Part shown: one piece after another, positions 38,573 through 64,000 of the stretch
Numbering within the stretch: position 1 is the first letter of the stretch
Layout of the letters: each line of letters opens with the position of its first letter
From: an uncultured Planctomycetota bacterium
GTDB lineage: Bacteria; Planctomycetota; Planctomycetia; Isosphaerales; Isosphaeraceae
Assembly: GCA_963845755.1 (NCBI GenBank)
Contig: CAWJTV010000020.1
Coordinates: forward strand, 352,001-416,000
Length of the DNA stretch: 64,000 nt
Direction of reading: 5' to 3'
Notes under the pieces: generated by a model
What the model saw: only the letters and a program-made list of their open reading frames with translations
The model's database searches: none
What the model was told of the DNA's origin: nothing
Made by a program: the position numbers and the translations under genes

Positions 38573-38593
38573 GATCACCTTACACTCGATGGC

Positions 38594-38714: not shown

Positions 38715-38833
38715 GTCAGATCCTCCTAACCAGGCTATTCATTCGCTCGCGCCGGCTGTCAGGGCGGCCCAGGATTGCATTGGGTACGCCCCAGGGCCGA
38801 TGCGAGTGCACCCCCTGGCCCTTCTCAAGGGGG

Positions 38834-39717: not shown

Positions 39718-39765
39718 GGGTTTGCTCGCTTCATACCTGTCATGTTGTGGAGAGAGTCCAGTCGC

Positions 39766-39903
39766 GGATTCGAGATTCCGGATTCGAGATTCCGGATTCG
39801 AGGGCTAATGTTCAATATTTAATAATCTTATTATCATATTATTATTTGTTAAATTACTTGAATATAATCGCGATTGTGAATCTCGAATCCGGGATCGGCA
39901 ATC
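39766..39903. repeat. Heptamer arrays in inverted orientation flanking a ~60-bp very AT-rich core
   Basis: gattcga gattccg gattcga gattccg gattcga ... AT core 39806-39868 ... gaatctc gaatccg ggatcgg caatc. Confidence 0.75.
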
Positions 39904-42194: not shown

Positions 42195-42826
42195 CTCGGA
42201 GGTCCCACCAACGGCCGGCCGTCGCGCTCGGGACGGACTGATCCATTTCCAGGGCCGCTCCACAACTGCTCGACGGAGATGAAGCCGGACGACGGCGCGG
42301 GCGTCGGCTCGGCAACACCGTCGACCGCGATGCCCGTGGCGTCCGGCGCGGCGGCGACGATCGCCTCCTCGATCCGGTTCCGAAGGGTTTCCGACGACGA
42401 TGGGCAGCTCTGGCAGCTTCCTTTCATGCGGAGCCGCACCACGCCGTCGGTAATGCCCACGAGCTCGACCTCGCCTCCATGCGAGTGGAGGAATGGCCGC
42501 ACCGAGTCGAGCGCCTGTTGTACGCGAGTTTCCAGGTCCAGGGGATGGAGCCCGTGGAGCATCAGCAGACTGCCGACCAGGTCGTCGCGGGCCAGCTCGT
42601 CCAGGAGCGACCGGCCGGGCTCTCCGGCCGCTCCCAGGCGCTCGCAAACGCGAGAAAGGCCCATCCCGTGCAGGTCGAGGACGGCCTGAACCAGCTCCTG
42701 GGCACCGGCCCGCGTCGCGGGATCGGCCGATTGCTCGATCGTCTGGATCAACGACTCGATCCGCTCGATTCGCTGCCGAAATGCGCCGTTGACGGTCGGT
42801 TCCACGATCACCCCCCTGATTGTCAA
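42191..42826 (-). CDS. NifU/NfuA-like Fe-S scaffold protein
   Basis: LHGLHP, VRPFLHSHGGEVEL, GSCQSCPSS (CxxC). Confidence 0.88.
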   Translation of the reverse strand: MTIRGVIVEPTVNGAFRQRIERIESLIQTIEQSADPATRAGAQELVQAVLDLHGMGLSRVCERLGAAGEPGRSLLDELARDDLVGSLLMLHGLHPLDLETRVQQALDSVRPFLHSHGGEVELVGITDGVVRLRMKGSCQSCPSSSETLRNRIEEAIVAAAPDATGIAVDGVAEPTPAPSSGFISVEQLWSGPGNGSVRPERDGRPLVGPPR

Positions 42827-42840
42827 TGCGAGATTCCTTC

Positions 42841-42902
42841 GTAGGGTGGGTGAAACCCACCAGTGATAGGGACCCGATACTGGTGGGTTTCACCCACCCT
42901 AC
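42841..42902. repeat. GTAG-family REP doublet downstream of hydrogenase large subunit
   Basis: gtagggtgggtgaaacccaccag ... ctggtgggtttcacccaccctac, perfect 23-bp inverted repeat with GTAG ends. Confidence 0.88.
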
Positions 42903-42932
42903 AAAGGCCGGAGTTGTTATTCGGACCGTTTG

Positions 42933-44730: not shown

Positions 44731-44745
44731 GGAGAGGCTCCTTTC

Positions 44746-45819
44746 TCAGCGGGCGGCATAAGTGGTGGGGTGATATCCGGTGGTCAACTCGGGGCGTTTG
44801 TGCCGCCACTTGGGCTCCTGGTCGAGCGAGCGGTTGGTAAAGCCGCGGAGGGCTCGAATGATCCGGCCGTACATGCCGATGGCCGTCGAGGACAGCTTCG
44901 AGCCGGGAGGCGCGTCCATGAACGGCATGAACTTGTCCGGGAAACCGGGCATGGTGCAACCGATGCAGATCCCGCCGACGTTGGGGCAGCCGCCGAGGCC
45001 GGCCATCCAGCCGCGCTTGGGCACGTTGCACTGGACCACCGGGCCCCAGCAACCCATCTTGACCAGGCATTTGGGGGACCCGTACTCGTGGGCGAAGTCG
45101 CCCTGTTCGTAATAGCCCGCGCGGTCGCAGCCCTCATGCACCGTCTTGCCGAACAGCCAGGTGGGTCGATGCGCATCGTCCAGGGGGATCATCGGCGAGA
45201 GGCCCGCGGCCTGGTACAGCAGATACAGGAATGTCTCCATGAAGTTGTCAGGTTGAACCGGGCAGCCGGGCACGCAGACGATCGGAATCCCCGCCTTGGT
45301 CTTCCAATCCCAGCCGAGGTAGTCGAGCAGTCCCATGCAGCCGGTGGGGTTGCCCTCCATCGCGTGAATGCCGCCGTAGGTCGCACAGGTGCCGCACGCC
45401 ACGACGGCCAGCGCCTTGGGCGCCAGGCGGTCGATCCAATCGCAGGTCGGGATCGGCTGGCCGGTCTTCTTGTCGGTCCCGAGCGCGGCCCAGTAGCCCT
45501 CCTTCTTGATCTTCTCGTTGGGGATCGAGCCCTCCACCACCAGGACGAAGGGGTCGAGCCGCCCCTCCTCGGCCTGGTACCAGTAACTCATGAACTCGTC
45601 GCCGTTCTCGTAGGCGAGGACAGGATTGTGCAGGTGGACCTTGGGGAGCCCGGGGATCGCGCCCAGGATCACGTCCTCGATGCTGGGCTGGGTCGCGGCG
45701 GTGATGGAGACCGAGTCGCCGTCGCAACCGAGTCCCGCCGTGATCCAGACGACATGTACCTCCTTCACGGCGGGCGCCTTCTGCGTCTTGCGTCCGTAGG
45801 GGACTGTCGCTTCGGCCAT
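44746..45819 (-). CDS. hhyS: [NiFe]-hydrogenase small subunit, group 1h type, no Tat leader
   Basis: GLGCDGDS, ACGTCATYGG, PGCPVQP, VHEGCDRAGYY, CLVKMGCWGP, CPNVGGICIGC. Confidence 0.93.
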   Translation of the reverse strand: MAEATVPYGRKTQKAPAVKEVHVVWITAGLGCDGDSVSITAATQPSIEDVILGAIPGLPKVHLHNPVLAYENGDEFMSYWYQAEEGRLDPFVLVVEGSIPNEKIKKEGYWAALGTDKKTGQPIPTCDWIDRLAPKALAVVACGTCATYGGIHAMEGNPTGCMGLLDYLGWDWKTKAGIPIVCVPGCPVQPDNFMETFLYLLYQAAGLSPMIPLDDAHRPTWLFGKTVHEGCDRAGYYEQGDFAHEYGSPKCLVKMGCWGPVVQCNVPKRGWMAGLGGCPNVGGICIGCTMPGFPDKFMPFMDAPPGSKLSSTAIGMYGRIIRALRGFTNRSLDQEPKWRHKRPELTTGYHPTTYAAR

Positions 45820-45877
45820 CTCGGGTTCTCCTTTCGGCCTGGGTCCACGGATCGAAACGAATGAGGGGACGGATGGT

Positions 45878-46999
45878 TCAGCAGATCCTCGGCAACTGTT
45901 CTCCTGCCAGCATGGTGACGACACGTTCGCCGCCCACCACCGAGCGCATGGTGACCATGCCCGCGTGTTCGGCGACGACCTCTCCAATGATTGCTGCCTG
46001 ACGTCCGAGCGGATGAGCCTGCATGGCCTGCACGACGCGGGCGGCATCCGCGGGCGGTACGACCGCGATGAGCTTCCCTTCGTTGGCCACATACAGGGGA
46101 TCGAGACCGAGCATCTCGCAGGCGCCCCGGACCTCATTACGGACAGGGATCGCCTCCTCGACGAGCCGGACCCCGACTTGTGAGGCGACGGCCAGTTCGT
46201 TCAAGGTACTCGAGACACCACCGCGGGTCGGGTCGCGCATGGTGCGGATCTCGGGGCAAGCCGCGAGCATGGTGCGGACCAGCCCGGTGAGCGGCGCACA
46301 GTCGCTCTCCAGCATCGTCTCGAATTCGATCCCCTCGCGCACCGACATGATCGCAATCCCGTGGTCGCCGATCGTCCCCGAAACCACAATGCAATCACCG
46401 GGCCGCGCGGCTGCGATCGAGAGATTTCGCCCTTCCGGGACCACGCCGATGCCCGATGTCGTGATGAAGACCTGGTCCCCCTTGCCCCGATCCACGACTT
46501 TCGTGTCCCCCGTGACCAGCGATACCCCCGCCTCATCGCACGCGGCGCGCATCGAGGCGACGATCCGCATCAAGTCCGACAACGCCAATCCTTCCTCGAG
46601 GATGAATGCCGCCGAGAGGAAAAGCGGCTCGGCCCCGCCCACCGCCAGGTCGTTCACCGTGCCGTGAACCGCCAGCCGACCGATGTCGCCACCCGGGAAG
46701 AAGAGCGGCTTGACCACGAACGAATCCGTCGTGAACGCGAGTCGCGGCGCCTTCACACCGTTGTCGCCACCGAGCCGGAGGGTCGCCTGGTCCTCCAGCC
46801 GGGCGAGCACGTCGTTGCCGAACGCGGGGACGAAAAGACGTCCGATCAACTCGGCGGTCAACCAGCCGCCGCTGCCGTGCCCGAGCACGATCTGGTCGTA
46901 CTGAGAGCGCGGGATCGGACAGGAACCGAAGAGCTCGGGAGCGAGGCTCGAGCCGGGATCGGTCGTGTCAGATGACGTCTTCTTCCCCGCGGATGACAT
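45878..46999 (-). CDS. hypE: Carbamoyl dehydratase HypE
   Basis: GHGSGG, TTDSFVV, GTVNDLA, RDPTRGG, C-terminal PRIC. Confidence 0.97.
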   Translation of the reverse strand: MSSAGKKTSSDTTDPGSSLAPELFGSCPIPRSQYDQIVLGHGSGGWLTAELIGRLFVPAFGNDVLARLEDQATLRLGGDNGVKAPRLAFTTDSFVVKPLFFPGGDIGRLAVHGTVNDLAVGGAEPLFLSAAFILEEGLALSDLMRIVASMRAACDEAGVSLVTGDTKVVDRGKGDQVFITTSGIGVVPEGRNLSIAAARPGDCIVVSGTIGDHGIAIMSVREGIEFETMLESDCAPLTGLVRTMLAACPEIRTMRDPTRGGVSSTLNELAVASQVGVRLVEEAIPVRNEVRGACEMLGLDPLYVANEGKLIAVVPPADAARVVQAMQAHPLGRQAAIIGEVVAEHAGMVTMRSVVGGERVVTMLAGEQLPRIC

Positions 47000-47600
47000 G
47001 GATCAAGTCCCACAAAATGTGCAGCAGAGTCTCATGCGTTTCCTGAATACGATGGATGCTGAAGCTGGGGACTGTAAAGCAGTAGTCACAGATCTCGGGC
47101 ATTCGCCCACCGTCACGGCCGGAGAAGCCCACGGTCCGCATTCCCAGTTCGCGTGCCGCCTGGAGTGCGCGGTTGACGTTGGCCGACTTCCCGCTGGTCG
47201 AGATGCCCAGGGCCAGGTCGCCGGCGCGGCCCAGCATCCGGAGCTGCTCGATGAAGGTCATGGAGAAATCCTGGTCGTTGCCGACCGCCGTGAGGAACGC
47301 CGTGTCGGTCGTCAGCGCCATGGCCGGCAGCGCCGGACGTTTTTCGATGATCGGGTGCATGAACTCGACCGAGACATGCGCCGCATCGCACGAGCTGCCG
47401 CCGTTGCCCATGACGAAGAGCCGGCCCCCTTCGTCGAAGGCCCGCGCCATGGCGGTGGCGCACTCGGTGATCCGATCGGCATTCTCGTTGAAGAACTGCT
47501 CCTTCGTCGCCATGCTCTCGCGGCACTTGCGCAGGATCGCCGCGTGCAACACGTCGGAAGCGGACGCTCGGGGCGCGTTCGGGTCGGCGATGACGGCCAT
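46968..47600 (-). CDS. gmhA: SIS-domain protein, GmhA (phosphoheptose isomerase)-like
   Basis: GNGGSSCDAAH, TAVGND, STSGKSAN, RIQETH. Confidence 0.8.
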   Translation of the reverse strand: MAVIADPNAPRASASDVLHAAILRKCRESMATKEQFFNENADRITECATAMARAFDEGGRLFVMGNGGSSCDAAHVSVEFMHPIIEKRPALPAMALTTDTAFLTAVGNDQDFSMTFIEQLRMLGRAGDLALGISTSGKSANVNRALQAARELGMRTVGFSGRDGGRMPEICDYCFTVPSFSIHRIQETHETLLHILWDLIHVIRGEEDVI

Positions 47601-48781
47601 CAGAGGGTTCCTCCGATCTGGACCAGTTGGGGGTCGGCAAGGGGACTCACCTCGGCGGATCCTGACCCATCGGCCCGCCTCGTCCTGGCCGCCTCGAGAT
47701 GGCGGCCGTACGCGTAGTACGCCGCGCAGGCGCCCTCGGACGAGACCATCGTGGCGCCCAAAGGCATCTGCGGAGTACACTCCTTGCCGAATGCGGGGCA
47801 GTCGTGCGGCTTCTTGAGCCCCTTGAGGATCTGTCCGCTGATGCAGAGCGGCGACTCCTGCGTCTCGACGTCGTCCACCTCGAAGAGCCGCTCGGCATCG
47901 TGGGCCCGATACTCGTAGCGCAGCTTGAAACCGCTCTTGGGGATCAGGCCGACCCCGCGCCACTTGCGGTCGCAGACCTCGAACACGTCGTCGATCAGTC
48001 GCCTCGAATCGAGGTTCCCCTCGCGACGGACGACCCGGGCATAGGGGTTCTCGACCTCGGCGCGGCCGGCTTCGAGCTGCTGGATGGTAAGATAGACCCC
48101 TTCGAGCAGGTCGACCGGCTCGAAGCCGGTGACCACGATCGGAACCCGGTATCGGCGGGCGATCGGCTCATATTCCGTGTGACCCATCACGGTGCAGACA
48201 TGCCCCGGTCCCAGGAAGCCCTGGACCCGATTCCCCGGCGCCTGGAGGATGGCCGTGATCATCGGCGGCACGAGCACGTGGGAGACCAGCACGCTGAAGT
48301 TCGTCAGGCGTCTCTTGTGGGCCATCGCGACAGCCATGGCGTTGGGGGGCGCCGTCGTCTCGAAGCCGATCGCGAAGAACACCACGTTGCGGTCCGGGTT
48401 CGCGGCCGCGAGGTTCACGGCGTCCAGCGGTGAATAGACGATCCGGATGTCGCTGCCTCGCGACTTGAGCTGCAAGAGGTCGCCGCGCGAACCGGGCACG
48501 CGGAGCATGTCGCCAAACGAGCAGAAGATGACCTTGGGCCGGGAGGCGATCGCATGCGCGCGGTCGATCATCTCCAACGAGGTGACGCAGACCGGACAGC
48601 CGGGGCCGTGCACCAGCTCGACTTCCGCGGGCAGGATCCGGTCGATCCCGTATTTGACGATGCTGTGCGTTTGACCGCCGCAGACCTCCATGATGGTCCA
48701 GGGCCGGGTCACAATCCGCGCGATCGCACTCGACAACTTACGAACGGCCGACCTGTCGCGGTATTCGTCGAGATGTTTCAT
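47600..48781 (-). CDS. hypD: Hydrogenase maturation factor HypD
   Basis: [41 protein letters not shown]. Confidence 0.97.
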
Positions 48782-49026
48782 GGCGGCGCCTTCAATTCGT
48801 CCAGTTGATCCATGCTTTCGAGGAACGCGAAGACGCGACGGGCCTCGGCCTCGTCGATGCGCGAAAGCGCGAAGCCCACGTGGACCAGCACGTAATCGTC
48901 GGGGACGGCCTCGGGCACGTGCTCCAGGCACACGCGCCGGGAGACCCCGCCGAACTCGACTTTCCCCATCAGGATGTCGTGTTCGCGATAGGTCTCAACG
49001 ACCTTCCCCGGGATGGCAAGACACAT
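48778..49026 (-). CDS. hypC: Hydrogenase maturation chaperone HypC
   Basis: [16 protein letters not shown]. Confidence 0.96.
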
Positions 49027-51316
49027 CAACACCTCCCTCGGTCATTCGTACCTGGGCCACGGCGATGGCGAGCTGGCCCAGGCACAGTCCGCCGTCGTTC
49101 GGGGGCACGAGATGATGTCGGAAGACTCGGAACCCGTCGCCCGTCAGCCTGACCTCGACTTCGGCCGTCAGAAGGGCATTGAGGAACACACCGCCGCTGA
49201 GCACCACGGCATCGAGCCCGGTCTTCAACCGCAAACGCCCGCAAACCCGCGCCACGACTTCCACGATCGTCGAATGGAACCGTCGGGCGATCTTCGCCGG
49301 CACCACTCCGCGACGGGCCTCATCGGCGATCACGAGGACCATCGGCCGCATGTCGATCACGAGCGGATCCACGTTGCCGGTCTCCAGGATCTCGAACGGA
49401 TAGGCTCCCTCGGGCATGACCTCGGATGCGAGCCACTCCAGCTCCATGGCCGCCTGTCCCTCGAAGCTCACTCGTTGCCGGACACCGGCCAGTGCAGCCA
49501 CCGCATCGAAGAGCCGTCCCATGCTGGTGGTTCGCGGCGCATTGAACCGGCCCTCGATCATCCGCTCAATCAGGCGCCGCGATGGGAGTGGGATGATCTC
49601 TGATAAATTCGCAAGTGTCTTGCCTGCGTCGATCAGATGGGCCGCCGCCATCCGCCAGGGCTCCCGGATCGCCTGTTCGCCGCCGGGCATCCCAACCGGA
49701 CGAAGATGAGCCGATCTGCGATAGTCGCGATAATCCCCCGTCAGAAACTCACCGCCCCAGATGACTCCATCGGTCCCGAACCCGCTGCCGTCAAAGGTGA
49801 CGCCGATCACCGGCTCATCCAGGCCATGCTCGGCCATGCAACTGGCCATGTGCGCGTGATGGTGCTGAACGGCGATCTTCGAGGTCGCGCCCGAATGGTT
49901 CCGTGCATAATTCGTCGATTGATAATCGGCGTGCAAATCGTGGACCAACACCTCTGGCCGCAGGTCGAAAAGCTGTTCGTAATGGTCGATCGCTTCGCGG
50001 TAGGCGCGGTAGGCTTCGTAATGGTCGAGATCGCCGATATGGTGACTGAGGAACGCGTGATGTCCGCGTCCCATCGCGAACGTCGTCTTGAGTTGGCCGC
50101 CGAGGGCGAGGGTCGGCCGTCGGCACTCGACCGGCAGGGAGATCGATCGCGGTGCGTCGCCTCGCGAGCGGCGAATCGGCAACTCGGCCCCGGCGACGAC
50201 CCGCGTCACCGAGTCGTCGCAACGGAGATGAATCGGCCGATCGTGGGTGAGGAAGAAGTCGGCGATCCCTGCCAGACGCTCGCACGCATCCCGATCGTCG
50301 TAAGAGATGGGCTCGTCGGACTGATTCCCGCTCGTCATCACCAAGGGCGTACCGCCTAGCTCGCGCAGGAGCAGATGGTGCAAGGGCGTATAGGGGAGCA
50401 TCACGCCGAGCCAGGGATTGCGCGGTGCGATTCCCTCGGCCAGGCAAACGCTCGCCCGACGGCGCAGCAGGACGATGGGTCGGCGAGGCGCGAGGAGCAG
50501 GGTTTCCTCTTCGGGAGAGACCTCACAAAGCTCGCTGCACTGCGGCGATGTCCACGACCATGATCGCGAACGGCTTCTCGTCGCGATGCTTCCGCCGGCG
50601 GAGCTCGGCCGACAGCCTGCTCGTTCCCCGCGACACAGGCCAGGTGATAGCCGCCCAGTCCCTTGATCGCCCCGATCATCCCCTTCTGGAGGGCCGCGGT
50701 CGCATGCGCGACGGGATCGGCCGTCTCGATCGGTCGTCCCCGATGGTCGAGGTAGGTGAGCTGTGGCCCGCAAGCCGGACAGGCGGTGGGCTGGGCGTGG
50801 AATCGTCGGTTGGTCGGATCCTCGTACTCGGCCCGACAGGCGGGACACATGGCGAAGGCGGCCATGCTCGTCCGCTCGCGGTCGTACGGTGTCCCCGTGA
50901 CGATGGTGAGCCGAGGCCCGCAGTTGGTGCAGTTGAGGAACGGATACCGATATCGGCGGTCGTCGGGATCGAAAAGGTCCGCCAGGCAATCCGCGCAGGT
51001 CGCGATATCGGGCGAGATGAAAATCGGACCGGTCTCGTCGAGCACGCTGGACTCGATCCGGAACGAGAGGTCTCCCACGCGGCGGCTGGGACGACCAGTG
51101 CAGTTCGTCGATCCGGGCCAGGGGCGGCGGCTGGGTCGTCAGCTCGGCGAGGAATCGATCCAGGGAGCTCGGCTCCCCCTCCACCTCGATGAGGACGCCG
51201 CCGGTGCAGTTTCGGATACAGCCACGAAGGCCCAGCCGGGACGCGAGCCGGTAGATGTGGGGTCGAAATCCGACACCCTGGACGATCCCGCTGATGGTGA
51301 TCGCGCGACGGATCAT
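48995..51316 (-). CDS. hypF: Carbamoyltransferase HypF; frameshifts near 51075 and 50600-50540
   Basis: [10 protein letters not shown] acylphosphatase domain; zinc fingers [41 protein letters not shown]. Confidence 0.93.
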
Positions 51317-53657
51317 GCAGCGCGCTCCGGCCGATCGCTTCCTTGCGATGGAGCCACGGTCCGCGAATCGTGGTTGTGCTGGGGTTCTTCTTGTACTTTG
51401 GGGGGTGCCGGTGACCCTGTCAACCCACCGTCCTTCGACCAATGGTGAGACGACGGTATAGCGATGGAGCCGTCATGTCCGATTCCTCGTCGGGCCGATC
51501 GACCTCATGGCACAGCTCATGGTACAAGCAAAAGGGCGGAGGGGACTCGATTCGGATCGTGCAGCCGCAGGAAAGTGTAACCGATCCCGGCGGTTCCCAA
51601 CATCAAGGAGGGGTTTGGGCCGCCGGAGTAAAGGCCCGAGGGCCAGTCGCCCGAGTCTGAGTGGCGGGCGATCAAGGCGCGCGCCGCGGCGAGGGCGCCG
51701 TCGCGACACGATGAATCATCGAGCGTCTCGCCGGCGATGAATAGGATCTCGATCAATCCTCCCAGGCCGTGGCATGGGGTTGCGTCGCACCGCGGCGACG
51801 CGAGTTTCTGCTCGATCGCAACACGGGTCGTAGCGATCCCGACTCGGGCCATCGCGAGGTAGTCGTTCCTACACTCCGGGTCGAGCGTGGCGGCACGCAG
51901 CCGCGCCAGAGCAATCCCGGGTGCCCCATGGCACCAGGCCGTTTCGAAACGCAAGCGGCCCGAGCGACGTTTCCGATCGGCCCAGTTGCCATGTTCCGGT
52001 TCGAACAGCGTATCCTCGAATTCAAATGCTCGACGAGCGGCATCCCGGAAATCGACACGTCCGGTCGCCGCGTGGAGCTCGAGCAAGGCCAGGCCGATTC
52101 CGGCCGCGCCGTGGGAGATACCACTGTAGAGCAACTCGGCGGGCGCCGGATCGGTCGCGGAGTCTCCCTCCTGGGGCTGCAAGACCACTCGCCAGAGATC
52201 GGATCGGATTAGATCCTCACCGAGCGTCGTCGCGAGATCGCAGCAGCGCTCCAGGCCGGGCGACTTGCTCAATACGAGGATGCCGGGATCGCCCCGGCAT
52301 TCCCGGCGATCACGTTGACCATGTGGGGCAAAGAAACCGCCTCGACTACCCGATCCAGTATCGATTCGGCCTGGGCGAATCGTTCCTCGGACCGCGTCAG
52401 GTTCCCCATTCTCCAGGCCACATATGCCACTCCCAGATCCCCGCTGAAGAACGACAGTGGAGAGAGGGGCTGCTTCACGGGCCAACGCTCGAACTGACGA
52501 ATCGAGCGGGCCACGGCTCCGTCGGAAATGCGCCGAAACTCGTCGTCGCCGACCGCCGCATCGAGTTGCGCCAGGAATAGCGCCATGCCTGCGGAGCCCC
52601 CGTAGAGATCCGGTCCGAGGGCTGCCGATGCCGGCGTGATCATGCCATCGGTCTGGGCGACCTCGTCGGTTGATCGGCCGATCCAGTTGCAGAACCGGCC
52701 CTCCCGGTCCCAATATGCCGATCGACAAAGGCTCCGACCGATCTGGATGGCTGCTCCAAGAAGCGACGCTGACGCGGGGTGAGCCGGCCCGAACTTGAAG
52801 GTCTCAGGCGTTCTCTCGCGATCTGCGGTCTTCTCGTCGCTCGCCCAGGCAGACGACAACGCCCCAGGGTCGTAATCTTCCCTCGAACCCGGCCCCAGAT
52901 GAGGTCGGAGTGGATCGAGACTCTGGCGGATGAATGCCGCCGCCAAGGCGTCGGCACGACGACAGCGATCGACTTGCCCGCTCAGGAACGATTGCCATAG
53001 GGACTCCGCAACGAGCTGGCATCGATGTTCGCCGAAACTCAACGAACCGCTCGGGTCTTCCGCGAACCCCAATCCGTCGGCCAGCCGCTTGGTGAAGAGA
53101 GGTACCTCCGGGCGAAGTCCGGATGCCACGCTCGAGTAGATGCGGCCGATGACCGCCTCGACCCGGGCCCGGTATCGGCGGCGCAAATAGATCACGCCTG
53201 CATCGGCGCGGTGGTAAGCGTGCGGGTGTCTGAGCACCTTGACCTGGAATGGGAGCCGCGATTCGTTCAAGAGTGAGGTGGCCGTGGCGATGAACGAGAC
53301 CGCCGCGCTGGCTTTCAAGTGCCAATAATAGCGCACGAGGGAGTCCACCCCATCGCGGCTGCTATCGGAGTCATTCTCTTCATCCCCGATGGCGAGATAG
53401 TAGCCCGGGACCAGATTGCGCAGCTCCTTCGCGACTCGAACCGAACAGATTTCGCCAGGCCGGATCGAGCCGTTCTGAACGCGCACATCCGTCGCCTTTG
53501 CCCAGAACTCGACGCCCTCTCTTGCGACCACAATCCGTCCGTCCTCCGCGAGCCGGAGGACAGACCAACCCGACTCCCAGTGCCCTCGGCCGGCGTTGGC
53601 CGCCGAAAGGGCGGCGAGCAGGTCACGCTCGGCGAGCTCATCGCGCTGGGTTAGGGG

Positions 53658-55149
53658 CAATACCGTTGAAATAGGCGCAAGCCACAGCCTCCTGTTACTT
53701 TGGGTTTACTCACGACCCAAGCAACACGGAGGCCATGACTCGCATGCCGCACGGACATTGCACGCTGCCGCCCGATGCGTCGGGCCGGATCTTGGATCGC
53801 TTGGCGGGACTGGAACAGATTATCTCGCCCGAGGCCGTTCGCCAAGTCCTCGCGGCCACCGGTAAAACCAATCAACGACGTTGCACACTGACCCACGAGA
53901 TTGTTTGCTGGGTGGTCCTGGCCATGGGGCTGTTGACCGACTTGCCGATCCGCCAAGTCTTCAAGCATGCACGCCGGCTCCGAGTCGGCGAGGAGAGTCC
54001 CCATCGATCCAGCCTGTGTGTGGCCCGGCAACGCCTGGGCATCGCGCCGGTCCGCCACCTGTTCGAGCACGTCGTTCATCCTCTGGCCCGGCCCGATACG
54101 CCCGGAGCCTTCTACCGCGGGTTCCGCCTGGTCGGCATCGATGGGACCGTCTACGATGTCCCCGACTCGGAGGCCAACGCCGTGGCCTTCGGCGCCCCTC
54201 GGCCGGGCCGCGCGGCGACGGGGCGTTCCCCCAAGTCCGCAAGCTGAGCCTGGTCGAATTGGGGACCCACATCGAACTGGCCTTCGTGGTCCGGTCGATC
54301 GCCCACGGCGAACCGTCGATGGTCGGCGGCTTGCTCCGCCATCTGACTCCGGAGATGCTCCTGTTGGAGGATCGCGGGTTTTTCAGCTATGACCACTGGA
54401 AAACGGCGATGTTGCGGGGCGTCAAGCTGTTGGCACGCGTGAAAAGCGGCTTGATCCTCAAGTCGATCCAAAACCTGGCGGATGGCTCGTACCTGGCCAA
54501 GATTTATCGGGGTTGCTACGACCGTCAGATCGATCGGGATGGGATCGTCGTCCGGGTGATCCGCTATACACTGGACGACCCGCAACGAGTCGGACACGGT
54601 GAAACTCATGTGCTGATCACGAATCTCCTTGACGCGGAGCTTTATCCTGCTGAAGAATTGATCATTCTTTATCACGAGAGATGGGAACAGGAGTTGGTCT
54701 ATGACGAGCAAAAGACCCATCATGATCCGCGGCGGGCGACCAAGCCGGCACAGATGCGGAGCGAGACCCCGGCGGGGGTGATCCAGGAGATCTATGCGCT
54801 GTCGCTGGGTCATTTCGTGATCCGAGCCTTGATGGTTGCGGCCGCCGGGACCGTGGGGCTGGACCCGGATCGGCTGTCGTTTCTGGGGTGCTTCCAGATC
54901 CTCAAGTGCCGGTTGCCAGAATGCAACAGCTCGACCCCCGAGGCGTTCGAGGAGTGGTATCAGCGGATTATTGTGGGAGATGCAGGGGGAACGCACCGAT
55001 GACGAAGTGCGGAGGAACCGGATCAATCCGCGAGTGATCAAGCGTAAAGATGTCGAAATGGAAGAAGAAACGATCCCAAACATCGACACATTCCGCCCTT
55101 GAAGAAAACCTTTGCAGAGACAGTGGTTATGCTTCGTTAAACGGTATTG
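53658..55149 (+). mobile_element. IS4-family insertion sequence, 1492 bp, 10-bp target-site duplication GGGTTAGGGG
   Basis: Left end CAATACCGTTGAAATAGGC, right end reverse complement CAATACCGTTTAACGAAGC; TSD at 53648-53657 and 55150-55159. Confidence 0.93.
53735..55140 (+). CDS. IS4-family DDE transposase; frameshifts near 54195, 54965 and 55045
   Basis: LVGIDGT, LLLEDRGF, LYHERWEQELVYDEQK (Y-R-E-K signature); N-terminal ARQRLG.APV..LF; stop TAA lies in right TIR. Confidence 0.9.
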
Positions 55150-55359
55150 GGGTTAGGGGAGGCGGGGAAGGTCGGAGATAGAGCCACTCGTAAAGGTGGT
55201 CCGCAAGCGCCAAGGTGAGGAGAGTCGGCCCGGCCGTGGAGGACGATTCGGAGAGGGCGTCGTCCGGGATCTCGCGCAGCCTGCCGAGCAGGGCATAGCG
55301 CGATGGTGACAGGATCTCCACCGCGTCGAGAATCGTCAGGAGATCATCGTGGACAGGAG

Positions 55360-56494
55360 TCATGACGCGACAGCTCCCGGCGGAATCCCGAAGAGTTGCA
55401 CCTGGCCAAGCTCGGGTTCAGCCAGTAGGTTCGCGCTAATCTGTAGCAGGAGCACCGGTTGACCGGTGAGACGGTCCGACTTGCCTGTAAGCTCGTAGGT
55501 CGAACTGGATGAGTCGGACTGCGGCGAACGCCACCGCCCGCCGCAAGAACCCGCCCTCCTCGGCAACCTCGAGACCGGCCGCCGCGCGAATAACCAGCCC
55601 ACAAGGCACGTGATGCGGCCCGCAACTCGTCCAGCGGGACCCGCGCCCGTGCGGTCATCTCCTCGGTGGTCAGCTCATCGGAGAGCGGCATCGAGGAGAC
55701 CCAGAGGACCAGGAAATCCTGCAAGGCACCCGCCAAATCCCATGCAGGATCGCCGATCCGGACCATCTCCCAATCGACGATCCACAGCTCGATGGCGTCA
55801 ACTTCCTCGTCCGCCCGCGGTGACCTGACCAGCACGTTGTCGAACCGGATGTCGCCATGGATCACCGTTTCGGGCCGCCACGACCGCGTCAATCGCTCGA
55901 GGTGTTCGACGAAACCCGCGTTGGCCTGAAGAATCCGCAGGATCTCGAGGTCAGCCCGGCTCAATCCGGCGCAATTCTCGGGCCCCGGTTGGTGAAAAAC
56001 TAGGATTGAGGGCAACGCCGGGGGAGCCAATCCAGACGTGGATCGCGTTCCGGATCCATCAGGCGAAAGTCGCGGTGGAGCGTACCCAGGGCTTGACCGA
56101 GTTCCCGAGCCGCCCGGAGGCTATGGCACCGGCCGCCGTGTTCCGCCGATTTGATCTGAAGCGTCGTGGCATCGGAGATCAACTCGAACACGAGAATGGC
56201 ATCTTCGACACAATTGTGCACAAGCCGCGGAAGAAAATGTGTCAAAGCGGTCGCGGCCGGCTCCTCCCGGCAGAACGTGTGGAATAACAATTCGCGACGA
56301 AGCGTCGCATGGCCGCCATGTGACAGGTGGTCCGGCTGTTTGATCAAGAAGCCCACGCCTTCGGGGCCGTCAACCCTCAGATTCCGATTTCGCCGCGAGA
56401 CGCTGCGGATGGTCAAGGTACCGTCGATGATCCATGCGACTTCGATCAGTCCCCGCTCGAGCAGGAAAGGAACGACACTGTCCACATCAAGCAT
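55360..56494 (-). CDS. APH/choline-kinase-fold phosphotransferase (class V LanK/TvaC-like); frameshifts near 56020, 55590, 55500
   Basis: SRRNRN, FLIKQ, IHGDIRFDNVLV, IVDWEM..IGDPAWDLAG; ATGA overlap with downstream HopA1-LanC start. Confidence 0.85.
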
Positions 56495-56626
56495 CGCGGG
56501 ATGTCTCACGGATGCGGGATTTGCCCCATGACGGTCTCAGTTACAGGCGGGTGTAACCGCATCATTTCGGTCGACAAACAAGCACGACCTGGCGCGGCGG
56601 TGCGAGGGGTGATGCCGCCGGTTTAA

Positions 56627-57137
56627 TCAGTCGAGAAGGCTCCGGATGGGCGAGATCACCGAAGGTGATGGCCTAGGAGTTGGCGTCGGGGAAGAGCAGG
56701 CGGCTTCGCTCGGTACTGGAAAGAGTCCCGACGCGAATCCAAGGACGTCGGTGTTTAGCGCAGACTTGATCGAATTAGCCGACACGATAGAGCCTCTCAG
56801 GAATGACGCCTCGACCGACTGGACGAGCTTGAGGGGCCCATCCAAGTTGACGACGATCCTCGTCGGCTGGGTTTCATCCGACGGGTCGAACGGCTCGAGG
56901 TATAGGATCTTGCCCTTGGGCACCTCGACATAAGCCTGGAACCTCAGATCAAGGTAGATGCGAACCAAACCGTTCGGATCGGTGCGCACCGAGGAACCCG
57001 ACCACTACGACGGTTTCGCGTGGCTCGCCGGAATCCTGCAAGATCCTGGCAACTAGCGGATGTGGAGTGAGAACGACGCCCTGCGCGCCAGGGTAGGACG
57101 GTGTCCCCTTGCTGCTTGGATCCTGCTTATCAGCCAC
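56627..57137 (-). CDS. Candidate RiPP precursor with large leader and Ser/Thr/Pro-rich, one-Cys C-terminal core (~169 aa after removing 1-nt insertion near 56988)
   Basis: ORFs 56949-57137 and 56627-56989 join as ...VVVVGFLGATDPNGLVRIYLDL...SFLRGSIVS...SEAACSSPTPTPRPSPSVISPIRSLLD; first gene upstream of kinase. Confidence 0.6.
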
Positions 57138-57354
57138 AGCTCGTCCCTCACAACGTCCGAGGGGGATCTACTCGAGAAGCATGACTACCATAATCATGTT
57201 GCCTGGATCTTCGAGAATATACAGCGTCGTTAGGGATGTCGCAATAGAGTCGTTTCCCGATGGTTAATCTCGCCGCACCGATCGGTGTCATCTAAAAGAA
57301 TAATACAAATAGTTTCTATCATCTTCTTGTATCGCAGATTCCAAGGCGGGGCGA

Positions 57355-60300
57355 TCATGGAATCGTCCGCGCGACACGCATCCCGACATCGGGCTCGAAG
57401 GCTGCTGCCTCGGCCCAGGCTTGATTGGCAGATCGTAGTCCGAGCGAGGCCCTACGGAAGGAGGAACCGCGAAGGATGCGGTTTTCACGAAGGACCGTTT
57501 CGCCAAGAATCTCGTCCGCGATCATGCGGCCCGGAATGATGGCAGATTCCGATTGTCGATCGTGACACCACTCGATCACGTTGCCCAACAAATCGAACAG
57601 TCCCAAGTCGTTAGGAAGCAAACTGCCGCAGGGGCGAGTTCGGTGTCCACCCTTGACGCCCGCATTGTCCAGATACCACTCGTAATACGAGAGCAACCCG
57701 GGGGGACTGCCGAAGTAGCGGGACGTCACGGTTCCAGCCCGGCACGCATACTCCCACTCCGCTTGCGTCGGGAGGCGATACCCGCCAGCAGCCACGGCCT
57801 CGGCATCAACACGCATCCCTGCCGCATATTGGCCTTTATCATTCGGCAGGTAGCATGGTCGTAACTTTTCCTTCGCGCCGAGCCAGTTGCAATAGGCAGC
57901 GGCTTCGTACCAGGTCATGTTGGGTTGGGGGCAGTCCGGGGTGGGACTGTACTGTACCTCGTACCCGTGACGCCTCTTATGCGTCTCCATCGTGTATGTC
58001 TGGAAGCTCTCGACGTTCACCTCCCTGGAAGCGATGGCGAATCGCCGGGGGATGAGTCGTCGATGGAACGGTTTGAAATCGCCTCGAGTCGGTTCGGAGC
58101 GCGGCGAGCCCATGTCGAACAGAGCCGGGCCGTCGATGAGGACCATCGTCTGGCCCTCCCGGTTGACGTACCAGCGCCGGCGGATCGCTTCACCGGCCCG
58201 AGGTGGCTGTCCGGGCTCGAGATTGAGCCGATCGACGTACCCCCATCGTCTCAGGACCAGCTCTGCCGACGAGTGGACGCCTCCGTCAGGATCGTTTCGA
58301 TACAACTTGATCAGAGTCTGGATCAATCGAGATGGTTCTTCGGGGCCGAGGGCCGTCTTCGGATACGCCGCCAATGCCTGGATGAGTGCCCGTTGCCGCG
58401 AGATCAACGGGTCGAAGAGGTAAGAGTTCTTCTCCGAGACCGCTCCCACGTCCTCGCCAAGTCGCTCGAGCTCCACCGCGAGGATCGAGGGGTCTGCGCC
58501 ATAGGGTGCGAGCGCAGTGATGAAATTGCTTCGCACTTCCGGGTCCTTGCTGTGTTCGAGCAACTTCCAGACCTCCTTGTCGGAACCCAGGCGGACCAGG
58601 GCTACTGCCGCTCTTGCCCGGCGCGGATCGCCGAGTCGCGGCCATGCCGCCTTCACTCGGCTGGTGGCCCTCCTTTCCGGAAGCCGGAGACACGGCGGGG
58701 CTCATCCTGCCCATCGAAGCGGGCTGCGTAGACTCTAATTCCTTATGGAGGTCCAGGAGGACTGCCGCAGGATCTCTTTGGATCACGTTGAAAAACAGGG
58801 AGAACGCCTTAGGATCCGCATCGAGCATGACATCGAGCAGATCATTCGGTCTGCCGGCGGCGTAGCGGGACAGAAACTCGGTCGCCAGGTTATGTTCGCC
58901 CTCGGGACGGCCTTCATCGCGAAAGATCCGTTTCAAGGGATCCAAGAGGTAGAGATGGACGCTCGACATGGCATCGAGCCAGCCTTTCGCGTCGAACTGC
59001 CCCCGACCATCGCGCCCGCGACGATGTCGGCGACCTCCGACCAATGCCGATTCGTCGCGTCGTAATCTGCCAGGAGGCCCGCCAAGGGGAGGATCCGGTT
59101 GTCGCCGGGCCTGGCACCCCGCAAGTCACGCCACGACCGATCGAGCAGCATGCCCCGATAAGGTCCCAGGCAAACCCGGAGCACCGCCATCTCGCTCGAG
59201 TCGACGACCGTGTTGGGCGACTTGTCAGGGACCAGGTAGTTGTAGAGGTAATCGACCGGCTCGTCGTTGAACGCAAGGAGAGCGAGGCTGGCGTGAAGCT
59301 TCTGTTTGGTGCGATTCGGCGCCTCGAGGACGATGCGCCTGAGCTCCGGATAGGTCCACCGTCGGAACGCCCAGATCTCGTGAACGATGTCGGGCACTTC
59401 GGCGATCTCGGCCGTGAGGAGCTGTTGCATCAAACCAGCGGCATGGGTTTCCGCGTTGGCCTCGATGAATCGATGACGGATCATGAGTCCCGCGACGAGG
59501 AGGCCGGCGAGCAGGACTGCCCCACCGAGGCCACGGAGCCCGATAATCCAGTCCGCCCGCCTCATCATCCGGCCCTGAGACTCGGTCCACCCCTTTGGCT
59601 TCGTCAGCGACCGGATCGAGAGCCACTCCACGGCCGAGGGCAGGTAACGGTCCTCCGGCTTGGCGTTCCACATCGCCGCGCGCTCCGCCAGCCGGAGTTC
59701 AGCCCGACCTTGGCGGGTCTCGCGTTGCTTGCGCGTCAACCAGTCGCGCAAGGCATGGACCAGGTAATCGTGTGTGAGTTGGTAGCAGCGGCCAGCCGCC
59801 GCGTGAGACGGCATGTCCTCATCGATCGAGCCCTCGGGATCGACGGGTGTGATCAGCCGAAGCTCATTGTCAAGCATGCGGATCAGGTCGATGAAGTCCG
59901 CGCGGGCGATCTCCGTATCCCGATAGACCTCGCAGTTCCTCGATCGATCGCATCCGCCCTTTGATATCCGCGTTCGACTCGGGCAGGAGCGCCTTCAGGA
60001 CGGCCTGCGCCGCCTTCTGGTGATATCGGTGATTTGGGTTGGCTCGCGGCGAGCTGAAGGTCTCCTCCAGGAACGTGACTCCGACTCCGTCCATGCCGCC
60101 GACTTCCCGCAAGGTTGCAGGGACCCAAGCCTTCCTCTTGACCATCTCGGCGAACAGTGCCAGCCGAACCGGGACGACTCGACTATCCTGCGCCAGCCCG
60201 TCGACCGCCTGATCGAGGAAGGCGCGCTGCTCACGGGTAAGGTCGTCGGCCCGCGGCGGCAAGGCTTCGTAAGCGCGCCCGTAGGCCGCCAGGACCTTGC

Positions 60301-62300
60301 GGGCGTGCTTCGGATCGAAGAGGTCGACAGCCGCGACGTTACGATCGGGGACCAGGTCGATCTCGAGGTCTCTCATCAATCGGGTCGCGGCCATCCAGAA
60401 GTCGTCGCGCACGAGGCAGAGGGCCTGGAGATGTTCGCCGTCGCATTGCCGCAGCGCCGCGACCAACTCGGCTGCCGGCTCACCATGATGGGCGAAAAGC
60501 CACTGCTCGAACTGGTCGAGGACCAACAAGACCTTCCGGTCGTGCGTGATGCCCTGGCCGCGCCGGAGGCTCGCCAGCGATTCGACCAGCCCGACGTCGG
60601 CGGGCAGGCTGGGAAACCGCTTGCGGACGCCCCGGAGCAATCGCGCCTCCGTCTCGCCGACGGTCGACTCGACGTAGACCGTCGCGACGTGTTGGCCTAG
60701 CATGGGCAGCAGCCCCGCCTTGACGAGCGACGACTTGCCGCAGCCCGATGGCCCGTAGATGAGCCCGACTCGGAACGTCCTGTCCGGATCGGTTGCCTCA
60801 ATCCGCGTCTTCCAGAACCGCAGTCCTTCGGGGAGCCCTTCGCGATCGCGAGGGCCGGGGAGGAGCTCGAGGAAGAAGTCGGCATCGTTTTCGTCGAAGG
60901 ACCCTAGCCCCTTCGGGACGATCCGGATCGAAAGGAGGATCGAATCCGATGATGCCGGGATGAGGGTCGGCGAGCCTTCGGTCGTCGTCGGTGTCGAGAC
61001 GGTCTTTGCTGCTGGGCTCACGCCGTGCATCGACATCGTCCGCAACTTCGATTCGAGGAAGTGCCGCAAGTCCTCGGCGAGGTCCCTGGCGGTGGCATAT
61101 CGCTCGGAAGATCGTTTGGAAAGCGATTTCAGGCAGATCCGCTCGAGTTCCCGGGGAATCGTGTCGTCGATCTGCCGCGGCGGGCGGGGCTCGGCGTGGA
61201 TGATCTGCTCCATGACCTGGTCCTTCGACGAACCCCGAAACGGTCGGCGGCCGGTCAGCAGCTCGTAGAGGACGACGCCGAGGCTGAAGATGTCCGAGCG
61301 CCCGTTCGACGCGATGCGCTTCACCACGCGCCTGCTCCGGACTCATGTACGCCGCCGTGCCAAGGTGGCGCGATCCCTTTCCCAGGTTTTCCTCCTTCAA
61401 GGCCAGGCCGAAATCCGCCAGGTATGGTGCACCGTGGGCATCGAGCAGGATATTCGCGGGCTTGATGTCCCGGTGAAAGAGGTCATGAATATGAGTGTAG
61501 TGCAGTGCCTCGCAGAGGACCGCGATCATCTCGGCGGCCTCGGCAACGGCAAGCCGTCCGCGACGAAGCCGGGCGGCGAGGTCGCCCCCATCCATATACT
61601 TGGACACCACGTAACAGTGGCCGTCCTCGGTGCGGCCCACGTCGTAGACCGGCACGATGTTCGGATGGGAGAGCCGGGCGATGATCCGGGCTTCCTCGAG
61701 GTAGGACTCAACATCCAGGAACCAAGACGACTGTGAGTGTACCGGCTTCTTAATCGCGACGTCGCGGTCGAGCTCGGCGTCGTGCGCCAGGTAGACTCGC
61801 CCGAACCCGCCCTCGCCGAGGACCCGGATCACCCGGTATCGGCCGATGGAACTCGGACATGGGTCCGGCCCGGTCTTGTTCGCCGCTCGGTCACCGTCAT
61901 CTCGGGCCAGAACAGGCGGGTCCGACGAAGGATGTCCCGGAAGGACTCCCGGATCGGCCACGGGTTCCACTGGTGAGTGCTTCAGGAAGGCATACAGCCG
62001 TTTCTGCCGTTCGGTTCTTTCACGCAGCGCTTCCAACAATTCGGGGTCATTGACACCGAGAGACTCCGGGGAAGCGTCCTCGCCGCGACCATAGCGCTGT
62101 TCCCACTGCGCGAGGAAGTCGAGAAGACGGTCATCCCGGTCATCGCTGGGCCCCATCCATACTTCGCCACGCTCGATCTTGGGCTTGCGCAGGGACTCCC
62201 TTTGGGTGTCCTCGCTCGTGGACTGCGCGGGGGTCTCACCGGCCTGGGCGCCGGCCTCAATTCGGGGAGTGGGCTGTGAGTCCGCGTCGGGGTCGTTCAT
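57355..62300 (-). CDS. Ser/Thr kinase - nSTAND1-like P-loop NTPase - TM - helical region - FGE/sulfatase-modifying-factor domain protein; several frameshifts (~61315, 59895, 59000, 58660)
   Basis: LGEGGFG, HRDIKPANILL, DFGLA, YMSPEQARG; PKGL.SFD, GPSGCGKSSLVKAG, LDQFEQ; RLPTQAEWEYACRAG, FDLLGNVIEWC, GMRVART. Confidence 0.85.
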
Positions 62301-62329
62301 CGGCCGCTCCGCTCGATCGTCCCGTAATG

Positions 62330-62592
62330 TCAGAAGGGTGTATTCGATCCATCCAGCCAGTGCGCGGCACGGTCGCTTCCAGGGCGACGACCAGCCGCAT
62401 CCAGACCTCGCTGACGACGCTTTCCAGGTCGTGACGGCCGTGCAGGCCGGAGAAATCGTCCTGATAGATCCGGGCGGCGATTCGCAACATGCGGTCGTGG
62501 GCGCGCTCCAGTAACTCGCACCGAGCCGTGATATCGCCACGGCGGAGCCGGTCGATCAGATTCTTGAGGTTAGCCGAAGTGTCGCCTACCAC
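62330..62592 (-). pseudogene. ECF-type sigma factor remnant with large internal deletion
   Basis: N-terminal LIDRLRRGD..ARCELLERAHDRMLRIA...DLESVVSEVWMRL (region-2-like) followed almost at once by HWLDGSNTPF* in another frame; no region 4 HTH. Confidence 0.6.
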
Positions 62593-62882: not shown

Positions 62883-64000
62883 TCAGGGCAGGGTCCTGAC
62901 GGGGCGGAACCCCAGGTCGGACCGGGATCCCTCCGGCACTAACCAGAATCGGCTCCAGGAGCGGAGCGAGTCGGGGTCGTTCCGGCAGGATCCGCCGCGA
63001 AGATAGCGATATTCGCCCTTCCTCACGGTCTCGTCTGCAATCACATCGCCTTTCCCGTCGGCTGGCCGGTCCTTGAGGTTCCACCCGGTATGACGATCGT
63101 GGCACCACTCCATCGCGTTGCCCAGCATGTCGAATAGCCCGAACTCGTTGGGAAGTCGCATGCCGCAGGAGTGGCGCGGAACCCCGAGGTGTAGTCGATC
63201 GCATAGACTGCGAGCAGGTCGAGGGACTGACCATAGTGGCGGCTGGTCACTGTCCCTGCCCGGGCGGCGTACTCCCATTCGGCCTCGGTCGGCAGGCGAT
63301 AGCCGCCCTGAGCAACCGCCCTGGAGTCGAACCCGCAGCCCCTCCGCGAACGTGCCATCGTTGGTCGCCAGGTAACATGGCGGTAGGCCCTCCCGCTCGC
63401 TGAGCCAGTTGCAGTAGGCCGCGGCGTCGAAATAGGTGATGTCGACCATCGGGCCATCCGGGTCTGGGTCGTAACGCTTGGTGTACTTGTGGGGGGCCTT
63501 TCGCACGTCTCTTGCGAAGGTCTGAAACTCCTCGATCGACACTTCCTTGGAGGCCATGGCCAATCGGTGCGAGATCCGTTGTCTGTGATATACCTCCTCT
63601 TCCTGACGGAGCGGGTCCATCGGCGGGGCGCCCATGTCGAAGTCGACCCGGCCATCGATGAGGATCATCGTCTGGCCAGCCCGATTGACATACCAGCGGC
63701 GGACGATCGGTTCTCCCGCCCGAGGCGCGCCCCCGGGCTCAAGCTTCAGTCGATTCTGGCGACCCCAACGCCTCAGGATCAATTCCGCCGCCGAGTGGAT
63801 GCCGGCGTCGGGGTCGTTGCGGTAGAGGTCCTCCAGGGTTTCGAGCAGCGCGTCGCGCTCGCGAGGATCGGAGTCGAGCGCCACCTTGGGGAATCCCGCG
63901 AGCGCCTGGATCAGCGCCCGGCTCTTCGATCTGGCCCGGTCGAAGAGGTAATCGTTTTTCCCTCCGCCCAGGCCGGGCCTGGCAAGTTCCATCGGGGCGT
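62883..64000 (-). CDS. C-terminal FGE-domain part of a paralog of the 57355-62300 gene (runs off window); frameshifts near 63330 and 63185
   Basis: LYRNDPDAGIHSAAELILRRWG, RRWYVNRAGQTM, YRLPTEAEWEYAARAG, FDMLGNAMEWC, LGFRPVRT. Confidence 0.85.
   Translation of the reverse strand, partial: APMELARPGLGGGKNDYLFDRARSKSRALIQALAGFPKVALDSDPRERDALLETLEDLYRNDPDAGIHSAAELILRRWGRQNRLKLEPGGAPRAGEPIVRRWYVNRAGQTMILIDGRVDFDMGAPPMDPLRQEEEVYHRQRISHRLAMASKEVSIEEFQTFARDVRKAPHKYTKRYDPDPDGPMVDITYFDAAAYCNWLSEREGLPPCYLATNDGTFAEGLRVRLQGGCSGRLSPADRGRMGVRRPGRDSDQPPLWSVPRPARSLCDRLHLGVPRHSCGMRLPNEFGLFDMLGNAMEWCHDRHTGWNLKDRPADGKGDVIADETVRKGEYRYLRGGSCRNDPDSLRSWSRFWLVPEGSRSDLGFRPVRTLP

Follow-up and report, generated by a model that had tools for sequence, protein, structure and literature searches.

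Class V lanthipeptides are made by a free APH-type kinase, LanK, acting with a HopA1-like lyase, LanY, and class Vb adds a dedicated cyclase, LanC, according to passages in PMC11186320 and PMC12291118. Class Vb corresponds to the SmoA pathway of Pei et al. 2022 (J Am Chem Soc 144:17549), as described in passages of papers that cite it (PMC11186320, PMC12291118, PMC12328550). Class Va, with LxmK/LxmY (PDB 9dk1-9dk3) and CaoK/CaoY, has no LanC and instead uses LanD and LanX to form AviMeCys (aminovinyl-methylcysteine). The relevant portions of the papers on these two systems describe LxmK-LxmY as an obligate, stable heterodimer with a shared substrate cavity (PMC12141560), and give R187, K219, R229 and Y236 as the catalytic residues of CaoK/CaoY dehydration, with the mutants R187A, K219A and R229Q (PMC9486802). 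In a survey, Eyles et al. (2021, Chem Sci 12:7138, PMC8153245) remarked that fusions of HopA1 and LanC could be a new, uncharacterised lanthionine synthetase; in the portion of the paper that deals with them, the fusions are a survey remark without biochemistry. A full-text literature search, with most subscription journals outside its scope, found no biochemical study of a fused enzyme and no mention of the fusion other than that of Eyles et al. Here we analyse a cassette with such a LanY::LanC fusion in a 64,000-nucleotide stretch (hereafter the window) of an uncultured Planctomycetota bacterium, positions 352,001 to 416,000 of contig CAWJTV010000020.1 in assembly GCA_963845755.1. An earlier note on this DNA had described the fusion as an intact single-polypeptide enzyme and, given the remark of 2021, rated its novelty too high.

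On the minus strand, from 57137 down to 51517, the window holds a compact three-gene lanthipeptide cassette composed of a precursor gene, a free APH-type kinase (LanK) and a LanY::LanC fusion. The whole is best, and very probably, explained as a LanK plus LanY::LanC cassette in which the fusion gene has been cut by an insertion sequence (IS), and in which the frame breaks are mostly or all assembly indels. The fused design is already known, and the window carries an IS-broken member of that family. From the precursor gene to the end of the fusion, the features are as follows.

56627..57137, minus strand: precursor peptide gene with a GTG start and a conserved leader domain of ~110 aa (leader-profile match); frame break near 56985.
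55360..56494, minus strand: LanK, an APH-type Ser/Thr kinase (Pfam APH, E 6.2e-11), lying in three frames with breaks at ~56018, 55589 and 55504.
55160..55363, minus strand: 5' fragment of LanY::LanC, codons 1 to ~68-70 (58% identity with residues 1-64 of the 780-aa homologue P0002).
55150..55159, no strand: right copy of the target-site duplication, GGGTTAGGGG (sequence comparison of the IS flanks).
53658..55149, plus strand: IS4-family insertion sequence of 1,492 bp (Pfam, terminal inverted repeat, target duplication, copy number).
53648..53657, no strand: left copy of the target-site duplication, GGGTTAGGGG (same comparison).
52896..53417, minus strand: HopA1-like (LanY) phospho-Ser/Thr lyase domain (Pfam HopA1, aa 82-255, E 4.5e-37).
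52284..52619, minus strand: first part of the LanC domain, with LYGGSAG (LANC_like profile 3-111 at aa 348-459), in the same frame as the lyase.
52281..52287, minus strand: frame break within LanC, where the tblastn high-scoring segment pairs of P0002 change frame; one base short relative to intact homologues.
51517..52284, minus strand: remainder of the LanC domain (LANC_like profile 138-350, E 2.5e-34), with the catalytic His and the zinc ligands.

By sequence, the cassette is best classed as a fused variant of class V(b) machinery. It shares with class Vb a free APH-type kinase, a HopA1-like lyase, a zinc LanC-type cyclase and a ribosomal precursor, in the gene order precursor-kinase-lyase-cyclase, and 46 of 60 copies in relatives keep lyase and cyclase as adjacent genes. 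It differs in that LanY and LanC form one polypeptide, whereas class Vb has separate LanK, LanY and LanC; in its precursor, with a ~110-aa folded leader domain that lacks a Pfam or NCBIfam model; in its host, a planctomycete-like soil bacterium rather than Streptomyces; and in being IS-broken. The likeness to class Va lies in the lyase, which matches LxmY in sequence and fold and carries the Arg/Lys/Arg/Tyr set, and in the APH-type kinase; in contrast, neither LanD nor LanX is present in the window cassette. A zinc LanC-type cyclase tethered to dehydration machinery is also found in LanL (CuvL, 8car) and LanM (LicM2, 6st5), and in sequence the LanC half scores best against the cyclase of LicM2 (E 1.3e-23). 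However, LanL joins an OspF-type lyase and a Pkinase-type kinase in a single chain, and LanM eliminates within its own kinase-like domain, whereas the window has a separate APH kinase and a HopA1-type lyase. The single chain of OspF-type lyase, Pkinase-type kinase and cyclase by which class IV LanL and class III LanKC are recognised is thus not what the cassette encodes, and a Pfam scan gave no Pkinase match within it. The view of the earlier note that the arrangement is distinct from LanM, LanKC and LanL therefore stands.

The fusion is evident from one open reading frame (ORF) of 463 codons, 52269-53660 on the minus strand, which matches Pfam HopA1 over aa 82-255 (E 4.5e-37; 128 bits, with the cut-off at 22.7) and the LANC_like profile 3-111 at aa 348-459 (E 3.5e-9). 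The junction of HopA1 and LanC is in frame, far beyond chance. As the earlier note had said, this ORF runs unbroken from HopA1-like sequence into LanC repeats, with RADAGVIYL at 53210-53184, LFTKRLADGLGFAEDP at 53099-53052, SFGEHRC at 53039-53019 and LYGGSAG at 52607-52587; its N-terminal half is truly homologous to HopA1, as seen from the Pfam score and from the match of homologue P0002 to LxmY. The other three of the seven motifs listed in that note, GISHGAAG (52122-52099), AWCHGAPG (51939-51916) and PCHGLGG (51777-51757), are also present, but they lie past a frame break in another ORF, 51517-52728 on the minus strand, which carries the LANC_like profile 138-350 (E 2.5e-34). LANC_like is covered over 3-111 and 138-350, yet across two reading frames: ...NAGAIPA is the last of frame A, at 52281, and the reading continues in frame B with GILVLSK at 52284, so that the LanC coding sequence is interrupted, as assembled, by a one-base frame break at 52281-52287. 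At the other end, the first ~70 codons lie within a 78-codon ORF, 55127-55363, 1.5 kb upstream of the HopA1 domain. The closest full-length homologues among the matches listed, P0002 (780 aa, 72% identity) and P0003 (777 aa, 69%), start M-x-x-(I/V)-H-D-D-L-L... and continue through ...LYLRPSPPP. The words 'single polypeptide' and 'intact' consequently do not fit the window, where an IS4-family element cuts the gene after ~codon 70 and LanC is frame-broken as assembled.

Relatives place the fused architecture itself beyond this assembly. Family counts here rest on the 119 non-self relatives listed, whose source names, where given, are Isosphaerales, Gemmataceae and Planctomycetes. PF17914 and PF05147 occur together in 103 of them according to precomputed annotation, which answers the domain-architecture check proposed for the fusion; 86 are full-length fusions with at least 700 aa, and in 79 of these 86 the [SAG]HG, WCxG and CHG patterns are present. 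Since the nearest relatives of the window gene are also fused, the window fusion is no indel artefact, as the earlier note had maintained. In an alignment of 41 fusions, R177, H181, K208 and R218 (P0002 numbering) are invariant and the position of the lyase Tyr is Y or F, while the cyclase residues C640, C693, H694 and H580 are conserved in 40, 38, 36 and 39 of the 41, respectively. The window retains the lyase catalytic residues as R in RYYWH, K in QVKVL, R in HRADAG and Y in VIYL. This R/K/R/Y set aligns to LxmY (9dk1_B), and the spacing of the basic residues and Tyr, 31/10/7 (31-32/10/7 across the family), compares with 32/10/7 in CaoY, an equivalence that rests on spacing, CaoY itself not being aligned. 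On the cyclase side, GISHGAAG, AWCHGAPG and PCHGLGG align with GLAHGLAG, AWCYGGPG and ICHGYSG of NisC, as well as with LicM2; the aligned residues of NisC, which we take to be its zinc ligands, agree with the catalytic His and Cys/Cys-His ligands that had been proposed from the motifs.

A structure model was made for P0002, 72% identical to the window ORF, rather than for the broken window gene. The AlphaFold2 model (mean pLDDT, the predicted local distance difference test, of 80) consists of two parts joined by a disordered linker at residues 338-362. The first ~335 residues match LxmY of LxmKY (9dk1_B) with a Foldseek E of 9e-16 and a TM (template modelling) score of 0.78 normalised to the target, and the C-terminal part matches LicM2, CuvL, LanCL1/2, MadC and NisC in fold. 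Sequence searches with P0002 (phmmer) also reach LxmY 9dk1_B (E 5.7e-8), LicM2 (E 1.3e-23) and NisC (E 8.8e-5). Another relative, P0118 (783 aa), has the C-terminal half of a kinase running stop-free into the lyase, and its LanC part is without the SHG and WCHG regions and shows NG where CHG would be expected; this protein may be degenerate or the product of a wrong gene call.

The element that divides the gene, 53658-55149, carries the perfect 10-bp terminal inverted repeat CAATACCGTT, with a perfect 10-bp direct repeat, GGGTTAGGGG, on either side. Its transposase is encoded on the plus strand, opposite to the fusion gene, and in two frames (53735-54247, Nterm_IS4, E 1.4e-18; 53881-55002, DDE_Tnp_1, E 6.5e-7). 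The genome contains 17 full-length copies with 98.2-100% identity (e.g., C44:100029-101518 and C11:872663-874151); an open frame of 487 codons is kept in four of the 17, and most copies have a 10-bp duplication of their own. A DDE transposase with an IS4 N-terminal domain, inverted repeats, a target duplication and multiple copies all place the element in the IS4 family, and its copies suggest an active-looking element. Copy lengths range from 1,485 to 1,492 bp, which fits assembly indels, and a central YTA(R) core is seen in most of the 10-bp target duplications.

The insertion splits the fusion gene after ~codon 70, at a point that maps to a low-confidence loop (residues 67-73) between two N-terminal LanY helices, just after the invariant R64, and the two gene halves abut exactly. 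Because the flanks are abutting halves of one gene with a perfect 10-bp duplication, the insertion is a true transposition and not a mis-join. We also compared the window from 51400 to 56800 with Logan contigs of four soil runs, whose cover falls mainly on the IS. One short-read contig bridges the left IS junction (53571-55149), and short-read contigs begin or end at 53658 and at 55149-55152. It is hardly credible that the organism has an intact single-polypeptide lyase-cyclase and that the IS allele is either carried by a minority or created by the assembly. Intact members of the family do exist elsewhere, and the read cover is too thin to exclude an empty-site allele; a repeat mis-join, however, would not give a perfect duplication and exactly abutting halves, the left junction is carried by a short-read contig, and searches of the genome, including tblastn with P0002 and P0118, found no second copy of the fusion gene. 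With the gene cut after ~codon 70, the window copy is therefore most likely non-functional, judging from its sequence. The result corrects an over-reading of this locus as an intact single-polypeptide enzyme, and an IS-disrupted gene in an indel-prone assembly is, as it stands, a poor candidate for expression.

The kinase gene is positioned between the precursor and lyase genes, and its TGA overlaps the fusion ATG as ATGA, in line with the expectation of the earlier note that a kinase is supplied in trans. LanK carries HGDIRFDN and DWE motifs and, read across its breaks, is collinear with the intact 370-390-aa kinases of relatives. Upstream of it, a leader profile built from 21 relatives matches two adjacent window frames (hidden Markov model positions 5-40 and 42-119); near 56985, the window has one base more than the related locus L001. 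The leader-profile search found exactly one copy of the precursor in the genome. In relatives, tblastn places the same precursor ORF before the kinase, with position and strand conserved. A same-strand upstream ORF of this kind occurs in 34 of the 71 related loci, and many of the rest are without upstream flank. The tails that follow the leader domain are hypervariable across the family and usually rich in Cys, Ser and Thr (e.g., ...GTFELGCYTLAGTLCLTCTPTFICPQ in L009). The window tail, ...SEAACSSPTPTPRPSPSVISPIRSLLD, has many Ser and Thr and one Cys, and includes SEAACSSPTPTPRPSPS, with that single Cys; assembly indels may affect it. L001, the nearest related locus, has two full cassettes 9 kb apart (L001:8212-12340 and L001:17275-21480). 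Their fusion proteins are 85% and 53% identical to P0002, and the DNA between the cassettes carries Ser/Thr kinase-STAND and FGE-sulfatase genes resembling the ones found upstream of the cassette in the window.

There are five frame breaks in the cassette: near 56985 in the precursor, near 56018, 55589 and 55504 in the kinase, and at 52281-52287 in LanC. Unique short-read cover of the kinase and precursor genes consists of five 151-nt contigs (~740 nt in total). These match the window except for one base omitted at 55589 and one extra base before 56019, the latter seen in a 13-letter loose end that equals the window sequence plus one base. The two indels coincide exactly with two of the three sites at which the kinase frame breaks. 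As the contigs are otherwise identical to the window and differ from it exactly at the break sites, both covered kinase breaks are assembly indels, a pattern that is hard to explain otherwise. The remaining three breaks, in LanC, the precursor and the third kinase site, are probably assembly artefacts as well. Similar defects occur in related long assemblies, namely a compensating pair of shifts at residues 20-55 in L001, a split kinase in L005 and a four-piece copy in G001. Contig indels inside the IS (54191, 54964, 55045/55049 and 55075) were not counted as proof of assembly error, because with 17 IS copies they are unassignable to the copy in the window.

Several points weigh against this account. 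The contigs have a depth of only 2-4, and the runs may share a sample with the assembly. The LanC break, the kinase break near 55504 and the precursor break near 56985 lie outside the read cover, no contig falling on 51400-53570, and could be real mutations. No short-read contig in the four runs, with their thin cover, has the right IS junction or an empty site. Moreover, with five breaks in ~4.1 kb the cassette is more densely broken than the initial 30 kb of the window, which include intact LeuRS, SucC and SucD genes, and such a density would be the expectation of relaxed selection after the IS hit.

Followed to its end, that last point would make the whole cassette a decaying pseudogene cluster, with real frameshifts accumulated after the insertion. 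Besides the density of breaks, this explanation draws on the window IS copy having diverged furthest among the 17 (it is 98.2-98.9% identical to the other copies), and on the patchiness of the cassette, a match being found in four of 41 genomes related to that of the window, its own included. We nevertheless consider it unlikely: both kinase breaks with read cover are contradicted by otherwise identical contigs, HypF and the NiFe hydrogenase elsewhere in the window are broken likewise, paired or multiple frame shifts affect the same genes in the related long assemblies (L001, L005, G001), and the catalytic residues are all still in place. We thus retain an IS-cut cassette in an indel-prone assembly as the preferred explanation. 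Six further window genes are frame-split (30213-31785, 40911-42157, 42936-44745, 48998-51472, 59873-62555 and 62886-63998); the set comprises a beta-lactamase, DUF6084, the NiFe hydrogenase large subunit, HypF, a Ser/Thr kinase-STAND NTPase and an FGE-sulfatase protein, and the zinc-finger part of HypF sits in another frame. Gene calls of this assembly should be treated as indel-prone.

By analogy with the described systems, LanK, docked on the LanY domain, would phosphorylate Ser and Thr residues of the precursor tail. The LanY domain would then remove the phosphate to leave dehydroalanine or dehydrobutyrine, and the tethered LanC domain, with its zinc, would add a Cys thiol to close a (methyl)lanthionine ring. 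In the window, the product would probably be a single S-x3-C ring of the SEAAC motif. The active multi-copy IS4-family element, in opposite orientation, would have ended this chemistry by cutting the fusion gene after ~codon 70. We infer the enzyme activities and the kinase-lyase complex (the chemistry by analogy), as well as the inactivation of the gene and an assembly origin of the LanC break; the domain identities, the conservation of residues, the IS with its target duplication and the assembly errors at two kinase sites were observed directly.

The Cys content of the nearest precursors is awkward for a cyclase, and counts against the cassette as we read it: the window tail has one Cys, that of its closest relative (L001 copy 1) none as read and that of L001 copy 2 one. 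Together with the presence of LanCL proteins among the fold matches, these tails would suit a fused LanC that adds an external thiol to dehydro-residues, like LanCL, or that serves mainly as a scaffold, instead of cyclising the cysteines of its own precursor. This we find very improbable, since the conserved catalytic His and zinc ligands are those of NisC and LanM, most precursors of the family are Cys-rich (figures below), the Cys-poor tails come from indel-prone assemblies, and the window tail has the S-x3-C motif. Combined with its cognate kinase and precursor, an intact relative would make a compact two-enzyme system for thioether rings. The enzyme family and its precursors are uncharacterised, and this locus itself is of modest interest.

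To place the fused enzymes among their relatives, a scan of one genome per species gave 478 stretches with a relative, from which 71 loci with 72 gene copies were kept. Fourteen of the copies are fused, 46 split, two lyase only and 10 cyclase part only. The fused copies are stop-free in 13 of 14 cases, the other being L001 copy 1, with its paired frame shifts. In the split copies, the lyase and cyclase genes lie side by side and frequently overlap; four of the 46 have an in-frame stop in the linker. The possibility that uninterrupted homologues are two separate genes, which the earlier note had offered as a test of the fusion, is thus borne out for 46 of the 60 two-part copies, but not for the remaining 14, nor for the nearest relatives of the window gene, which are fused. 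Fused forms are found in at least seven bacterial phyla and in one archaeal metagenome-assembled genome (MAG), and fused LanY::LanC enzymes are common. In the archaeal case, a Nitrososphaeraceae MAG (L034:580-3995), a stop-free fused LanY::LanC has an upstream APH kinase on a contig labelled archaeal. In a quick maximum-likelihood tree of the lyase (LG+G4, 62 rows, unrooted), the fused forms all fall in one well-supported clade of 30 rows, mixed with split forms. At least three changes of state of the fused label are forced by the starred branches of this tree, and parsimony gives seven; because the tree is unrooted and quick, gain and loss of the fusion are indistinguishable.

The cognate precursor family is more interesting than the window locus itself. 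A scan of seven precursors found no Pfam or NCBIfam model, and a literature search did not find a name for the family in print. Against 1.84 billion representatives, the leader-domain profile matched 3,513 proteins at E <= 0.001, of which 2,382 at E <= 1e-10. Among the best 150 of the 3,513 matches, the leader domain is almost always N-terminal and the median length is 322 aa. For the 145 of these 150 that exceed 145 aa, median contents of 11.4% Cys and 14.1% Ser plus Thr were obtained past residue 135, and at least 10 Cys were counted in 100 of the 145. Tandem repeats make up some of the precursors, which reach 600-930 aa; examples are the L040 ORF (934 codons from stop to stop) and P0230 (846 aa, 62 Cys in the tail). 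Long-tail precursor ORFs were seen at L040:6011-8812, L026:5810-8071, L053:6003-8600, L031:6350-8740 and L012:4541-6859, and in many members of the family the tail is protein-sized, a tandem repeat of up to ~930 codons with 50-60 Cys.

The leader domain is predicted to be folded, with six strands and a pLDDT of 96-98 for residues 30-90. A Foldseek search of the PDB gave no clear match to a solved structure (best E 0.22), and VIA-align wide likewise gave no clear relative, its best hits (Z up to 3.7, 38-47 residues aligned) being small barrels of the Hfq/SH3-like type. In the loci examined, giant tails accompany split enzymes, and fused enzymes accompany tails of ~50-100 residues. It is conceivable, although we would put it forward only tentatively, that LanK and LanY with LanC, fused or separate, serve this large unmodelled precursor family, and that protein-sized, many-ring thioether polymers arise if the whole tail is processed. 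The precursors might then, with the same reserve, be seen as a folded, beta-rich domain of ~110 residues with a tail of a few dozen to more than 800 residues, made up in many lineages of tandem modules rich in Cys, Ser and Thr, rather than as peptides with a short disordered leader. If true, this would amount to a widespread route to protein-sized thioether polymers instead of small lanthipeptides, with the window cassette as a broken member of a small-tail, fused-enzyme branch. A folded leader and very long repeat tails are unexplained by current lanthipeptide models.

The parent assembly comprises 14.27 Mb in 49 contigs with a completeness of 87.9%. A Pfam scan of the flanks in five neighbourhoods (L001, L003, L008, L009 and L018) found no protease or exporter common to them, and the only neighbour that such a scan found the window to share with L001 is an upstream FGE-sulfatase gene. 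A NiFe hydrogenase cluster follows the cassette immediately downstream, at 36872-51472 of the window and in the same orientation, with small and large subunits, a HycI-type protease, HypB-like, HypD, HypE-like and HypF proteins, DUF5947, DUF6084 and a NifU-like protein; it appears unrelated to the lanthipeptide genes. The G+C content of the window is ~64%, and it falls to 57-60% over 54500-57500, which includes the IS, kinase and precursor, against ~65% in the flanks; this composition is consistent with a cassette that may have been acquired horizontally.

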